Below are positions 42,001 to 48,000 of a stretch of DNA of 64,000 bases, piece after piece. The stretch covers positions 448,001 through 512,000 of the forward strand of contig JAVJNR010000004.1 of NCBI GenBank assembly GCA_040217195.1, written 5' to 3'. Position 1 is the stretch's first letter, and each line of letters opens with the position of its first letter. This DNA is from Leptospiraceae bacterium (GTDB lineage Bacteria > Spirochaetota > Leptospiria > Leptospirales > Leptonemataceae). A program made the position numbers.

Positions 42001-45000
42001 AAAGGAACGATTGATGGCATCTATATAAGCTCGGGCCGAGGCTTCCACAATATCGGTACTGGTTGCTTTGCCGGCAAAGCTTCTACCAGCAATCTTCAGC
42101 AGGACGCTGGCCACGGCCTGGGCATCCCTTCCTTCGCTCAATGGTTGAATGCGAAACCGATCCACTTTGATTTCCAATCCTGTGAGTCGTTCCAGTACAT
42201 TGTAGATTGCATCCACCGGTCCATCGCCGCAGGCAGCATCTGTAATGGCCCGGGGTTCCTCTGGTTTTTCATGATCGATTAGTTTGACAGTAGCTGTAGG
42301 TACTGTGCCGCTCCCTGCGGAGACATGAAGACTTCCCAGTTCGTAGCGCTGAAATTCCTGCTCGGCCTGCGTATCATTCACGAGAGACAGTATGTCTTCA
42401 TCGTAAACTTCCTTTTTCTTATCTGCCAGATCCAGAAAGCGATTCCAGACCTGCTGAAACTCCTCTTCTTCAAGCACATAACCCAGACGGACCAATCGGT
42501 CTTTAAATGCATGTCTTCCGCTATGACGGCCAAGCACCATTCGGTTGCTTTCCAGGCCCACGGATTCTGGAGTCATGATTTCGTAGGTCAGTCGATTCTT
42601 CAGCACACCATCCTGGTGTATTCCACTCTCATGTGCGAAAGCATTGTCACCAACAATGGCTTTATTGGGCTGAACGCTCATTCCAGTAACCTGGCGGATC
42701 AGCCGACTGGAACGGATAATTTCCTCTGTATGGATATTCGTGTGTAGCCCGTAGAATTCACCACGAGTACGTAGCGCCATAGCCACCTCTTCCATGGCCG
42801 TGTTGCCGGCCCTTTCGCCAATGCCATTAATCGTACATTCGATTTGCCTGGCACCATTCTTAACAGCCGCAAGACTATTCGCAGTGGCCATGCCCAGATC
42901 ATTATGACAGTGAGCACTGAATCGAATGTTTTGTGAATCCGGAACATGTTTAATCAGATGAGCGAAAAGTGCTCCGTATTCTTCGGGCGTGGTATATCCA
43001 ACTGTATCGGGAATATTTATGGTAGTGGCTCCTGCCTCCACGACCCTGGAAACAAGCTCTACAAGAAAATCCCATTCACTTCTTGTGGCATCTTCCGGTG
43101 AGAATTCCACATCTTCCACCAGATCTCGGGCCTGCTTCACTGCTTCAACAGCCAGCTCCAGCACTTCATGGGGCTCCTTTCCCAGCTTGTATTTCATATG
43201 AATAGGACTGGATGCCAGAAAGGTATGTATTCTTTTTCTACGAGCATCTTTCAAAGCGTCCGCAGCGATTTCAATATCCCGGGGCACAGCACGGGCCAAT
43301 GCTGCTATAATGGGGGATTCCAGTTCGCGCGCCACTCGCTGGACTGCTCGAAACTGCACCGGACTGGATACTGGAAACCCAGCCTCGATAACATCCACTC
43401 CCAGAGCTTCCAGGCGGTGAGCCACTTCCAGCTTTTGATCCTCGGTCATGGCAGCACCGGGACATTGCTCTCCGTCTCTTAGAGTCGTATCGAATATATA
43501 TACCAGCCCGGCATCGTTTTGCCGGGCGATGGAATTTTCCAATGTGCCCTGTGGTTCTGAGTTGCTCATCTCTAGGACAAATTAACGGCCGGTTTTCGCC
43601 TCGCAAAACCTTTTTTAGCCTGGAAATGGATCACAACGAGGTACTTAAGCATACATTTACTTGTCAAATATCCGCCATGGTACCCTGATTAGTCATGGCC
43701 GATTCTACAGATCCATTTGAACGGTTTTCGGCCAATCTGTATCTCCAGGAATACTATGGCAGTATTGGAGAGGAGAATCAATTCATACTGGATTTTCTTC
43801 ATGAGACCTATGAATCCTGGAAGCCAGTTATTGTGCAGGATATTGGCGGCGGGCCTACCATCTACCAGCTTATCAGCGCTTCCAGAGTCTGCAGAGAAAT
43901 CGAAATCTTCGAATATCTGGAGGAAAACCGCCAGGCTGTGCAGAGCTGGCGTGAGCAATCTTCCGAAAGCTTCAACTGGACTGAATATTTCCAGGCTGTG
44001 GCCCTCAGGGAGAACCAGGCGACCGTGGATGTGGAAAATCGCCTGAGGCAGAAGATTCGTTCCGTGCAAACGATTGATCTGTTCGATCCTTCAGAATTGC
44101 CTCATACACCGGCCAGCGATGGACTCCCAAATGCAATTTCTTCGCATTTTTGTGTAGAATCCATTACCAGCGATGAAACTATGTTTTGCCGCGCCTGGGA
44201 CAATCTTACCTCACTGGTCCGAAAAGATGATTATTTGATTATGAGCCTGCTTAAGAATGCCCATCAATACCGGGCCGGCTCCTTTCATTTTCCCGCATTT
44301 CCTGTTGAAGAAATCTCCCTAAATGCTCGTCTTAAAGAAAAGGGCTTTCGAGAAATTACAATGCAAACCGTTCCTGCCGAACATGGACGGGACTACGAAG
44401 GTATAATCTGTGTCCGTGCAATTCGATAAATCAGAATTCGAAGAAAGGCAAAGCAGGAAGCCAATTCTGGAAGCACTGCGGCGACATCATGATGAAGGGA
44501 TAGTTCCGTTTCATGTTCCGGGGCATAAGTATGGTGCAGGGAATCCATTGATGACCGAATATTTTGGTCATGCCATGCTTCAGTCAGATCTTAATGCCAT
44601 GAGCGATATTGATGATTTGGCCAATCCGGTAAGTGTTATTAAAGAAGCTCAGGACCTGACTGCGGAAGCCTTTGGAGCGGACCATGCATACTTCTTAATC
44701 AATGGAACCACTTCAGGAATTCATGCGATGATTCTGTCTGCCCTGGGACAGAGAGAGAGAATCATTGTTCCCAGAGATGGACATAAATCCATGTATTCTG
44801 CTTTAATCCTTTCTGGCGCCAGTCCTATCTTTATACCTCCGGCTATTCATCCGGAGTATGGATTTCCACTTCCTCCAGACCCAGCAGACATTGAGTCCAT
44901 TTTCTCCGAAGTAAATCAAATTCAATCCATAGAGATCAAGGGATTGTTTTTGATCAACCCTTCCTACTATGGTCTGGCCCCCAGGTTAGATACAATATCA

Positions 45001-48000
45001 TCCATTGCCAGCAGAGAGAATGTTGCCCTTCTGGTCGATGAAGCTCATGGTAGTCATTTCTATTTCCATCCTGATTTGCCCAGCACGGCCATGGAAGTAG
45101 GCGCATCTGCCAGCGCTTTAAGCATGCATAAGACCGGCGGCTCCCTTACCCAGGCATCGCTTCTACTGAGACAGGGAAATAGAATTAGCAATGATACAAT
45201 ACGAAACATACTGGATATTCTTCGCACTTCATCATCCTCCTATCTATTAATGAGCAGTCTCGATACGGCTCGCTCTCAGCTTGCCCTGGAAGGAGAATCT
45301 TTGCTGGAGAAAACTCTGGAGCTAAGCCGAAGAGCCAGAAAGGAGATCAACGAAATTCCAGGATTGATAGCTCCTGGAGTTGAGGAGTTGAAGCCGGATC
45401 AAAGAATTGGTGGCTTCGATGAAACCAGACTGACAATTTGCGTCAATGGACTTGGATTGAATGGCTTCGATGTTGAAAGGATTTTGCGAAGCGATTATCG
45501 TATTCAAATCGAAATGGCTGATTTCCACACCGTGGTTGCAATTGTTACTTTTGGAGATACCTGGCAGAGACTGGAAACTTTGATTCGTGCATTAAAAGAT
45601 CTGGCCGGTCGATCCTCGGGACGAAGCAAATTAACCAGGTTTCCGGACCATCCCGGTGTTCCTCCAAGAGTCATGAACCCGAGAGATGCCTTCTATTCTA
45701 GAAAAACGAGAGTGGACCTTGAACAATCTGATGGCAGTATTTGCGGAGAGATGATTATGGCTTATCCTCCAGGTATTCCGGTAATTTGTCCCGGGGAGGT
45801 TGTTACCCGGGAAATCATCGAGCATGTGCAGGCACTTAAAAAGGCCGGCGCTTCACTTCAGGGCATGGCCGATATTACCGCCAGTCGGGTCCAAATTGTA
45901 GAGGGCTCTTAAGGCCTTCCAGTCAGGCCTGAGAGAATAAGGAACCCTAACTTCATTTCAGGCTGTTTCAGCGTAACAATTCCGGGCGAAATAAGATATT
46001 CAATGGAAGAAAAGGAAATCACTCGATGAAAAGATAGATTGAGAAATGGCGTTCTGATTGGCTACAAAGGCGGGATCGCATCAGCTATCGTTGGATGCAA
46101 AGACAGGATCTTCATGGTCCGTGCGCGAGTACTTCTGACATCGTTCCAGATAAATCAGTGCCGCTCTATCTTCTGGCACCGCTTTATGAATGGCCATAAA
46201 GGTTTGCTCGGCTTCATCGAATCTCTTTTTATGGTATAACATTACTCCGTGCTCGAAATTCTCTTTCTGAGCGACCTTTCGCTCCACCAATTCCGGAGTA
46301 TCTCCATCCAGGACTTCATAGACCGGTACCGACTTGGTCTTTCCTTTTACTCTAACCTTACCCATGAACCGATAATTCACTTCCATGTCTTCCAGGGTCT
46401 GCCGTAGAGTAACTTCGCTGAGTATGATATGAGCACCCATTTTCTTGGTAAGACCTTCAAGCCTGCTGGCCAGATTCACAGCATCTGCGATGACAGTGCT
46501 TTCCATCCGTTCTTCTTCTCCGATGGTTCCCAGCATCAACACCCCGGTATGTAGACCCACACCAATATCGATGGGCATATATCCTTTCTCTTTTCTATAT
46601 ACATTGAAATCCAGAAGCTCCAGTCGCATATTGATGGCCGCTTCCACAGCACTTCTGGGAGTGTCTGGAAAAAGAGCCATGATCGCATCGCCAATGTATT
46701 TATCTATGAATCCGCGGGAATTTCGAATAACCGGTCCTACTCTTTTCAAATAGGAGTTCAGAAAGTTAAAGTTCTCCGAAGGTCTCAGAGATTCGGAAAT
46801 TGTAGTAAAGGAACGAATATCGGAAAAAAGAACCGTCATCTCTTTCTGGATTTGATCGCCCAGGCGAATATTCAATATACTTTCCTGACCCAGGTGCTGC
46901 AAAAACTCCCTGGGAACGAACCTGTAGTAGGAAGCGTTCAATGCTTGAAGATAATCTGAATAAGCACGAATCTCTTCAACCATGCTATTGAAAGTATCAG
47001 CCAGAACTCCCAATTCATCGTTGGTCTTAACATCTACCCTGGTTTCGTAATCTCGATCCTTTACTCGCAGTGCTCCATCCTGGAGTTTTCCGATGGGCCT
47101 GGACATTAGATTCGCAAGTATGTAAGAAAACACAAGAGAAAGAATCAGGGCCGCAACAACGCTAAAGACGCAAATGTAGAATAGTTCATTTACCTTGTTT
47201 ACTTCGCCGCTGGCATCGTAGTCCAGACCAAGGATTGCAATGGTTTCTCCAGTTTCATCCTTGATAGGCACAGCCGCTGAAAGCCACATCCCCCATCGGT
47301 CTGCCACGAAGTTCTCCTCCGCTGCAGGCTCTCCATTTATGGCTTTAATAAAGGATTGTTGTTTAACACCGTACAGGTTTCCAATTGGATTTTCCTCACC
47401 CTCGGTGTCGTAATCAGCATCAGCAAGAAATTTAAGGATTCGATGATCCGGACTATGCTTCACAGCTACGTACATGTACGCATATTTGATATTAGAATCC
47501 TGTACCTTGCCTTCCTGGGAAGGATCCACTCGTACGGTACTTTTCTTTATGGAACGAAGAATGGCAACCAGGCGCTGGAACTTCTTACCGTTCATCAGTT
47601 CCTGAGCTACTTCCGGACTGAGAGATTCTCGTGTATCTCCCTTGGCCACCTTCATGATTTCAGCCTTGGGACGAATATTCTTTTCTTTCAGGGTTTTTGA
47701 GAGATCCCGGATATAATCCAGGTCTTCCGGGGTCATGCTGTTAACAGAAGTTCGAGCGATGTCCATTAGACGACCGCCCATCACTTCCAGGATCATAGTT
47801 CTGGTACTGGTATAAATTAAATAAGCAGTCACACCCGTTGCAGTCACAGCCAGGGTGGAAACTACAAGCATCAGCTTCCAACGGAATGGAAACTTTCCGC
47901 GACCTGCTTTCACACATGCCCCCGAATATAAAGCACTATGCCATCCTCGCCTGGCAATGTAATGGCCCGGATTTGCTCATGCGCGGATTTTGCTGATCCT

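Follow-up and report, generated by a model that had tools for sequence, protein, structure and literature searches.

A PNMT-like methyltransferase gene overlapping a decarboxylase gene beside a cyclase receptor operon in a Leptospiraceae bacterium: a candidate side branch to methylated agmatine

The window, the whole 64 000 nt stretch of Leptospiraceae DNA analysed here, carries two forward-strand genes that share 20 nt (44410–44429), the end of the first containing the GTG start of the second. The first (g00435; 43695–44429, 244 aa) encodes an NNMT/PNMT-family enzyme, which we propose to be a SAM-dependent N-methyltransferase of a small amine, namely agmatine; the second (g00436; 44410–45912, 500 aa) encodes an ancestral wingless AAT-fold PLP decarboxylase of basic amino acids, probably an arginine decarboxylase. 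These reading frames and their overlap are as given in the genome-wide survey's note, which also described the pair as translationally coupled. Before the point where homology begins (about residue 14), the only in-frame starts of the decarboxylase are the GTG codons at 44410 and 44416, both within the methyltransferase gene. All four relatives of the genus inspected share the first of these codons (44410), preceded by an AG-rich stretch. As regards the overlap, the coupling is specific to the genus; in other genera the genes are divergent, one gene apart or fused (in frame in G022), and the description does not carry over. A promoter and terminator scan gave no excess over shuffled sequences. 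In one marine metatranscriptome run 9% of words were found, with a 283 nt contig over the gene junction (44342–44622, depth of about 6) and a second contig inside the decarboxylase, but no contig over the receptor operon described below; the other two of the three runs gave nothing. Such contigs do not prove transcription and are therefore left out as support.

The Pfam search places residues 3–240 of the methyltransferase in PF01234 (124 bits against a gathering threshold of 25), human PNMT matches it with an E-value of 2e-25, and it is not a member of the SCO2525 family (NF040568; 62.3 against a cut-off of 240). Its AlphaFold2 model (pLDDT 94) has a class I SAM fold with the NNMT/PNMT cap and matches NNMT/PNMT structures with Foldseek TM-scores of 0.83–0.88. 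The animal PNMT, NNMT and INMT (PDB entries 1HNN, 3ROD and 2A14) share the fold (TM 0.88), the SAM motif and the Tyr/Phe pocket frame, at about 25–29% structural identity, but the bacterial homologues are linked to decarboxylases and receptors. Glu155 of g00435 sits at the position of PNMT Glu185, while that of PNMT Glu219 is an alanine in 84 of 102 homologues. The pocket residues common to the homologues are E27, E155, A189, Y192 and Y234, and the pocket is unchanged whatever the decarboxylase partner (E27 in 97, E/D155 in 101 and Y234 in 90 of 102 homologues). E27–N28 is also found in mouse NNMT, so that this motif is not agmatine-specific. As the survey had counted, the methyltransferase passes the Pfam cut-off in 13 of 41 Leptonemataceae relatives and in five of six genomes of the genus; among a sample of 400 other Spirochaetota genomes no match exceeded it.

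The decarboxylase has the features of the ancestral type: OKR_DC_1 (212 bits) and OKR_DC_1_C domains, a length within about 480–500 aa, no REC wing and an intact PLP lysine motif (K241). The folds of the two enzymes and their intact catalytic motifs are established. The decarboxylase resembles the wingless ADC, ODC and LDC of about 500 aa, of the Bacillus subtilis SpeA type, described by Li et al. (2021; PMC8503589). These enzymes are, according to the same paper, 42–50% alike, so that the identity of about 40% to Bacillus SpeA, which the survey had listed as evidence, leaves the substrate unfixed. The text consulted gives no sequence signature for arginine specificity, and 2X3L, the nearest PDB entry, belongs to the family but is uncharacterized; sequence does not reveal the substrate of such enzymes. 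The window enzyme shares 46–50% identity with 12 enzymes of the family found together with agmatine deiminase, and in the tree it falls outside the AguA-linked clade, so that its specificity could have drifted.

Genomic context favours an arginine decarboxylase. Among 42 genomes of the family, 12 combine OKR_DC with strong AguA (E < 1e-73) and lack a second AdoMet_dc, 26 have SpeD and SpeDC and no strong AguA, and four fall in neither group; the two groups do not overlap. Every OKR_DC genome without SpeDC has strong AguA (12/12). Within the 26 SpeDC genomes, OKR_DC is present in all ten that carry the short methyltransferase, always adjoining it, and in none of the 16 that do not. AguA lies within about 15 kb of the decarboxylase in six of the 12 AguA genomes, where that decarboxylase adjoins CASDH; the AguA-linked clade thus behaves as ADC. 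Relatives of the ancestral type occur in ADC–CASDH–CASDC–AguA spermidine clusters, whereas g00436 is associated with the methyltransferase instead of AguA, putrescine probably coming from a SpeDC-type enzyme. Indeed, contrary to the survey, which had reported no ornithine decarboxylase, the genome encodes a probable one, a SET-fused SpeDC, at C1:118671, outside the window. It shows the Gln/Thr/Phe/Tyr signature around the processing serine, which is present in all 23 of the 26 second copies that were inspected, these diagnostic positions being deduced from the text of PMC10407285. SpeD and two aminopropyltransferases, SpeE and a second with Glu in motif 2, are also encoded. As the survey had stated for agmatinase and agmatine deiminase, neither these nor arginase, ADI or PvlArgDC were found in this 93.7%-complete genome. 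The presence of SpeDC, SpeD and the aminopropyltransferases supports methylation of agmatine by the pair: putrescine and spermidine would be made apart, by SpeDC, SpeD and SpeE, and the pair would be a dedicated side branch.

Of 103 groups of methyltransferase homologues, 57 carry a decarboxylase at most 4.5 kb away or as a fusion partner, as do 31 of the 51 groups with at least 2.5 kb of flank on each side; a chance decarboxylase neighbour is expected in less than 1%, judged by the gene density of this genome. The partners are PvlArgDC (21), SpeD-like (23, a label that covers SpeDA and true SpeD alike), OKR (9), SpeA (3) and another AR-fold enzyme (1). They come from four unrelated decarboxylase families, including the arginine-specific SpeA and PvlArgDC. 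SpeA passes TIGR01273 in L069, where it lies 78 bp upstream, and in L075; besides the OKR fusion in G022, SpeD-like fusions occur in L102, L150 and L161. Partner swapping is established: the partner type changes 15 times on a FastTree phylogeny whose deep nodes are weak, about 14 of the PvlArgDC groups forming one clade. In other phyla the pyruvoyl enzymes SpeDA/SpeDC and PvlArgDC (PF01862) stand in for the PLP enzyme beside the methyltransferase. The part of Li et al. (2023; PMC10407285) at hand gives SpeY, SpeB, AguA/B, HSS or SpeE as SpeDA/SpeDC contexts, with no methyltransferase partner found there. In eight small genomes with a SpeD-like gene, the methyltransferase and a sensor kinase, no matches to SpeE, arginase or AguA were found (0/8), and the SpeD-like sequences seen are without the SpeDC residues, which leaves agmatine without another outlet there. 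A decarboxylase is not found nearby in 46 of the 103 groups. Among incomplete MAGs, no pyruvoyl decarboxylase was found in the L087 and L093 genomes, G459 is also without SpeA and OKR_DC, and G505 has neither of the latter two. Other neighbours, namely an ODC-like SpeDC (L095), a PatA-like aminotransferase (L074) and AguA/AguB/SpeY (L115 and L154), fit putrescine or homospermidine and speak against methylagmatine.

The SpeDC-like partner in L095 and the PatA-like gene in L074 would suit a decarboxylase that is an ODC or LDC, the product then being N-methylputrescine or N-methylcadaverine. Precedents exist in agmatinase- and AguA-free genomes, in which, according to PMC8503589, ancestral AAT-fold enzymes are an ODC in Caldisericum and an LDC in Leptospirillum; in Clostridium botulinum, AIH and NCPAH are present and yet the enzyme is an ODC. 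However, with a SpeDC-type ODC already in the genome, a second ODC retained only next to the methyltransferase would be redundant (an LDC less clearly so). Moreover, two of the partner types, SpeA and PvlArgDC, act specifically on arginine, and the pocket stays constant from one partner to another. We therefore regard this possibility as unlikely. Because of the distribution within the family and the partner swapping among unrelated arginine decarboxylases, we favour arginine to agmatine to N-methyl- or N,N-dimethylagmatine as the best-supported chemistry, and a reasonably probable one as far as sequence and context can indicate. The survey had proposed this route, off the main polyamine pathway; that reading is still the best supported, but its reasons, the SpeA identity and the lack of an ODC, do not hold. 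In this scheme, g00436 would convert L-arginine to agmatine with PLP, and g00435 would place one or two methyl groups from SAM on the primary amine of agmatine, in the manner of PNMT.

Facing the pair on the reverse strand is a five-gene receptor operon, newly described here and co-inherited with the methyltransferase. Its members are a class III (adenylate-type) cyclase of 610 aa (46081–47913; Pfam HAMP and Guanylate_cyc), arranged as TM, single Cache sensor, TM, HAMP and cyclase, which is the candidate receptor; a 484 aa membrane HAMP protein without a recognized output domain (47910–49364), which occupies the same position in L079 (G451), G505 and G009 and has 4 nt overlaps with its neighbours; a small cNMP-binding-like protein of 129 aa (49361–49750), without a Pfam match itself but with a G009 homologue (E = 4e-14) that matches cNMP_binding; a second membrane sensor of 676 aa (49747–51777), which has HAMP and whose periplasmic part is large; and a 1070 aa protein in which HEAT repeats and a cNMP-binding domain are attached to an NTT/TLC-like MFS transporter (51774–54986; weak Pfam TLC, HEAT_2 and cNMP matches; Atlas TLC/MFS clusters at 0.97). 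Close homologues of the transporter adjoin the methyltransferase in L071 (E = 6e-223), L079 and L116. The model of the cyclase sensor, built with an alignment of 11 locus sequences (pLDDT 89), is an extracytoplasmic Cache fold between two TM helices. It matches DctB (Z = 13.9, r.m.s.d. 2.8, 150 aligned residues) and CitA (Z = 13.3, r.m.s.d. 2.1, 128 aligned residues) best, which bind carboxylates; of the amine-sensing receptors McpU, TlpQ and PctD, McpU reaches only Z = 8.8. At 10–19% identity, the fold gives no clue to the ligand.

In a tree of 34 cyclase sensors, from which seven genomes with matches were left out and for which the search profile came mostly from linked copies, the sensors of the 11 family genomes with the short methyltransferase all fall, together with L079, into one clade (support 0.85), which lacks an acidic loop present in the other 22 sequences. 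The second sensor is found in eight of the 42 family genomes, all of them carriers (8/11 carriers against 0/31 others), even where unlinked. A search with the sensor in 124 genomes of another class gave two matches, one being G505. Found in this way by the sensor alone, this genome has the genes for sensor, cyclase and methyltransferase one after another, the methyltransferase lying 3 kb away; none of four controls has the methyltransferase. Sensor paralogues are common (37/42 genomes), one of them, in G012, lying in a plain polyamine cluster without the methyltransferase. Among the 103 homologue groups, a kinase, a cyclase or this operon is nearby in 38.

The enzyme pair could be real and the operon an unrelated neighbour, linked by descent, with a structural or metabolic product. 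Cyclases abound in the family (a further one occupies 39791–41968), its members share synteny, and in two phage loci the pair adjoins a PAPS-reductase-like gene with no receptor. On the other hand, the link is kept through four gene orders in four genera, recurs in L079, G505, L071 and L116, and holds genome-wide even when the genes are unlinked (G009 and G022), so that we consider mere neighbourhood somewhat less probable than an ODC or LDC. Less probable again, by analogy with animal NNMT and INMT acting on amines, agmatine itself would be the Cache ligand and the methyltransferase would inactivate it or mark it for export. In G012 and G017 a related sensor-cyclase and NTT-like transporter do lie in ADC–CASDH–AguA clusters without the methyltransferase, and an SMR-like small membrane protein adjoins the methyltransferase in 15 groups (Atlas 0.91; PF00893 on 28% of members). 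Yet the linked sensors are a clade of their own, and a producer that overlaps or is fused to the methyltransferase, and is kept only with it, fits two-step synthesis better than inactivation.

It is improbable, too, that SpeE turns agmatine into N1-aminopropylagmatine or a longer guanidino-polyamine, with the methyltransferase capping this or another polyamine. Reportedly, 17 of 18 bacterial spermidine synthases aminopropylate agmatine. PMC11107197 describes this activity as common, and the genome has the aminopropyltransferases given above. Against it, the eight small genomes have the pair and no aminopropyltransferase match, and no aminopropyltransferase cluster recurs among the homologue neighbours.

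Methylated agmatine, if made, would probably leave the cell and be sensed by the membrane adenylate cyclase, through its Cache domain, together with its partner sensor; cAMP may then act on the cNMP-binding proteins of the operon, including the NTT-like transporter, this being the weakest step. Genes for small-molecule synthases likewise adjoin membrane sensors in CqsA/CqsS and LqsA/LqsS, although the enzymes and chemistry differ and the output here would be cAMP. Receptor types are swapped among the methyltransferase loci (CHASE4 kinase, 7TM kinase and Cache cyclase), and co-inheritance suggests a candidate synthase/receptor system of the quorum-sensing type. To a methylagmatine side branch with a linked receptor, the best single explanation, we give about an even chance; that the chemistry holds and the pair is also an amine-signal synthase with its receptor is more tentative. 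More doubtful still is the wider proposal that N-methylated agmatine serves as an intercellular signal in a wide range of phyla (spirochaetes, Chloroflexota, candidate-phyla bacteria, Bdellovibrionota and some archaea). Any arginine decarboxylase at hand would make it together with a PNMT-like enzyme, and interchangeable receptors would perceive it, here a Cache cyclase whose cAMP controls an NTT transporter. No description of an agmatine N-methyltransferase or a methylagmatine signal was found in the open-access literature searched. If true, the chemistry would explain what bacterial relatives of the enzyme that forms adrenaline do, establish an agmatine N-methyltransferase and give agmatine a destination other than polyamines. 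Should the receptor link also prove right, there would be a new class of amine signal and a ligand–receptor pair that can be tested directly, also in uncultured bacteria with small genomes, for which few signals are known.

Finally, g00435 belongs to the same family as GntF, the pre-guanitoxin-forming N-methyltransferase, which acts in an arginine-derived guanidino-amine pathway according to PMC10673588, and it passes the GntF model NF041360 with the score that the survey had reported (77.7 against a cut-off of 60). The cut-off is lax, unrelated homologues without gnt context scoring higher (L080, 105.8; L083, 102.2; L069, 96.1; L071, 81.7), and among the neighbours scanned (LeuA, OKR decarboxylase and the cyclase operon) no gnt family match was found, so that orthology to GntF in a guanitoxin-like pathway is rejected as highly implausible. 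Many non-cyanobacterial homologues pass NF041360, and the NCBI model thus gives a wrong name to many genes that have no part in toxin synthesis, a point of concern for surveys of cyanotoxins.

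The methyltransferase ORF (43695-44429, + strand, 244 aa) and the decarboxylase ORF (44410-45912, + strand, 500 aa) overlap by 20 nt on the same strand, as the genome-wide survey's note had described, and the pair is a real feature that probably encodes a new enzyme activity. The former, g00435, is a full-length member of the NNMT/PNMT/TEMT family (PF01234) both by profile (124 bits) and by fold (pLDDT 94; TM 0.88 to NNMT), with an E value of 2e-25 against PNMT. The latter, g00436, is a wingless OKR_DC_1 PLP enzyme whose PLP lysine is intact. Its GTG start lies within the last codons of the methyltransferase, an arrangement kept in all four genus relatives inspected, and the GC content of the pair is that of the flanking DNA. 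The reported absence of agmatinase and agmatine deiminase also held: no arginase, agmatine deiminase, ADI or PvlArgDC was found in the window genome, which is 93.7% complete. In the gap separating leuA from the methyltransferase, genus relatives share a conserved hairpin with a T-run behind it (43591-43616, + strand). About 30 nt ahead of the methyltransferase ATG there is also a box of TTG(T/C)CA type that is conserved; this ATG has no clear ribosome-binding site, and the transcript is possibly leaderless. A second, unrelated membrane cyclase (7TMR-DISM; 39791-41968) is located just past leuA.

We propose that g00436 would convert arginine to agmatine and that g00435, PNMT-like and SAM-dependent, would methylate the primary amine of agmatine once or twice, a chemistry to which we give somewhat better than even confidence. 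The survey's note had given identity to Bacillus SpeA as evidence. According to PMC8503589, ancestral ADC, ODC and LDC resemble one another at the 42-50% level, and two candidates taken from genomes without agmatinase and AguA turned out to be an ODC and an LDC. The identity is no proof of specificity and cannot settle the matter, so arginine is argued here from genomic context. Of the 42 Leptonemataceae genomes compared, 12 combine OKR_DC with a strong agmatine deiminase (AguA; E<1e-73) and lack a second AdoMet_dc gene; six of the 12 have AguA within about 15 kb of the decarboxylase, which there adjoins carboxyspermidine dehydrogenase. Another 26 carry SpeD and a second AdoMet_dc copy, SpeDC-type in all 23 inspected, without a strong AguA (two have weak PAD matches, E 9e-33 and 6e-22). 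No genome is in both sets, and four belong to neither. Among the SpeDC genomes, OKR_DC is present in 10/10 with the short methyltransferase and in 0/16 without it, counts that come from kin genomes and are hence not independent, so that no weight is placed on a Fisher value. It adjoins the methyltransferase every time: the two genes overlap in six genomes, diverge in G004 and G014, have a single gene between them in G015 and are fused in frame in G022. Three of the 16 have a divergent NNMT-domain protein of about 500 aa. Finally, g00436 is 46-50% identical to the AguA-linked decarboxylases, yet branches outside their clade. We read its clade as arginine decarboxylases that became dispensable once SpeDC gave putrescine and were retained only to supply the methyltransferase. 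The ODC and LDC precedents would suit a decarboxylase of either type, with methylputrescine or methylcadaverine as product; set beside this distribution, we consider that unlikely, although not negligibly so. The rival readings overlap in part. Divergent proteins of about 500 aa at L014-L016 (genomes G027-G029) have an N-terminal NNMT domain, an unannotated C-terminal half and no decarboxylase nearby; upstream of them are an EpmA-like gene and one for an M48-like peptidase (labels by inspection).

Genome and metagenome scans gave 122 loci, which with five family loci form 103 groups at 85% identity. A decarboxylase is fused or within 4.5 kb in 57/103 groups (31/51 of those with long flanks), against a chance expectation of <1% from the gene density of the window genome; the scan pattern spanned only the SAM motif, so the neighbours played no part in the choice of loci. 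The 57 partners are SpeD-like (23, three of them fusions), PvlArgDC (21, about 14 groups falling in one clade), OKR (9), SpeA (3) and another AR-fold enzyme (1), with 15 changes of type on the tree (FastTree; deep support weak). SpeA and PvlArgDC are arginine-specific, and TIGR01273 (SpeA) was passed at L069 and L075. Eight small genomes (incomplete MAGs) with a SpeD-like gene, the methyltransferase and a sensor kinase gave no match to SpeE, arginase or AguA; the SpeD-like enzyme would therefore not be needed there as a SAM decarboxylase, and agmatine would be left without a further outlet. Whatever the partner type, the acceptor pocket stays constant, an argument tempered by the presence of E27-N28 in mouse NNMT. 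Guanidino clues come from a phosphagen-kinase-family gene in L082 and from a further methyltransferase in L110, Methyltransf_25 only by Pfam, which we take to be GAMT-like. Counter to the agmatine reading, the partner is SpeDC-like in L095 and PatA-like in L074, AguA and SpeY occur in L115 and L154, and 46/103 groups have no nearby decarboxylase. None was found in G459 and G505 with the families tried; G451 and G445 have no adjacent one, but have SpeA elsewhere. In L082, a small genome, the methyltransferase, an ATP:guanido phosphotransferase and a SpeD-like gene stand in a row that could possibly make a phospho-methylagmatine phosphagen. L082, L102, L109, L150, L152, L161 and L179 have a subtype of SpeD-like protein in which an unusual Asp-Phe precedes the processing serine; in many cases this protein is fused to the methyltransferase. 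L087, L092, L093, L168 and L172 join a response regulator, the methyltransferase, a GNAT-like gene and a 7TM kinase, with no decarboxylase found; in L083 a related unannotated gene sits between decarboxylase and methyltransferase.

Five minus-strand genes joined by 4-nt overlaps (46081-54986) converge on the pair. They encode an NTT-like transporter-HEAT-cNMP protein (1070 aa), a sensor-HAMP protein (676 aa), a cNMP-like protein (129 aa), a HAMP protein (484 aa) and a Cache-HAMP-cyclase (610 aa). The cyclase retains D365, D409, K405, T473, N480 and R484, the adenylate-type set. Modelling of its sensor (pLDDT 89) gives one Cache domain, at about residues 35-245 (Z 13.9 to DctB, 13.3 to CitA), and no ligand is deducible from these fold matches. 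Such sensors are widespread (37/42 family genomes). In a tree of 34 sequences (the best copy from 30 of the 37, L079 from G451, a genome of another class, and three paralogues of the window genome), the 11 family carriers of the short methyltransferase and L079 form one clade (support 0.85), in which an acidic loop that all the other 22 sequences have is missing. The sole copy in G009, which is not in the sensor profile, belongs to this clade and lies 17 kb from the methyltransferase. The cyclase adjoins the methyltransferase in four gene orders across four genera, and the same operon does so in L071 and L116. The 676-aa sensor occurs in 8/11 carriers (unlinked in G009 and G022) and 0/31 other family genomes. 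Used prospectively on 124 genomes from the class to which G451 belongs, it matched two, G451 and G505; G505 was then found to have four consecutive genes for the sensor, the HAMP protein, the cyclase and the methyltransferase, whereas the methyltransferase was found in 0/4 control genomes. Other lineages have a CHASE4 or 7TM histidine kinase as neighbour, in many cases accompanied by a small membrane protein, SMR-like or other, and a receptor is nearby in 38/103 groups overall.

Folds, motifs, operon structure and co-inheritance were observed, and the pair and operon make a candidate for a new signal-receptor system. The product would be released and then sensed by the Cache cyclase, whose cAMP would act on the cNMP domains of the operon; methylagmatine chemistry together with all these steps is a tentative proposal that falls short of even confidence. 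That the operon is unrelated to the pair would agree with G012 and G017, whose related sensor-cyclase lies in an ordinary polyamine cluster lacking the methyltransferase, and with two phage loci that join methyltransferase and PvlArgDC to a PAPS-reductase-like gene instead; given the sensor clade and G505, we find this slightly less likely than an ODC or LDC. Methylation could also accompany a receptor by removing its signal, which is less probable again beside a decarboxylase apparently kept to supply the methyltransferase. Three more window-genome receptors with a Cache sensor (L240-L242) bear an EF-hand-like acidic loop missing from the linked clade. An NTT/TLC-HEAT-cNMP protein lies within about 10 kb of the decarboxylase in 16/22 decarboxylase-bearing family genomes (L019-L030, L224-L236), methyltransferase-free ones included, and may be a cAMP-controlled polyamine or agmatine transporter.

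The survey's note had overlooked the polyamine genes and its claim of no ornithine decarboxylase fails: the window genome has a polyamine route. A speD is followed by a SET-domain-SpeDC fusion of ornithine-decarboxylase type (G000 C1:117688-118991; L049:1408-2810), an arrangement that 26 of the 42 family genomes have and that never coexists with the ADC-AguA route. Of the aminopropyltransferases, a SpeE clears TIGR00417, while the other, thermospermine-synthase-like with Glu in motif 2, adjoins argH (C1:244981-245499; L002). The AdoMet_dc half of the fusion bears the Gln/Thr/Phe/Tyr signature of pyruvoyl ornithine decarboxylases, as set out in the text of Li et al. (2023; PMC10407285), and Glu in motif 2 is found in thermospermine synthases (PMC11107197). 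A longer polyamine would thus be at hand as methyltransferase substrate, but next to the small genomes without a SpeE match we give this a slim chance. The SET domain may methylate a small amine.

The guanitoxin pathway has next to no likelihood: g00435 passes the NCBI GntF model (77.7, cut-off 60), but unrelated homologues outscore it there, and GntF was rejected on context. Assignment to the SCO2525 family was rejected. We found no description of an agmatine N-methyltransferase or a methylagmatine signal in the open-access literature, and the available portion of PMC13625781 makes no mention of methyltransferases. The phage loci L319, L320, L137 and L143 group the methyltransferase and PvlArgDC with a PAPS-reductase-like gene and a gene for an unknown protein of 231 aa, and may be cassettes for modifying DNA or nucleotides.
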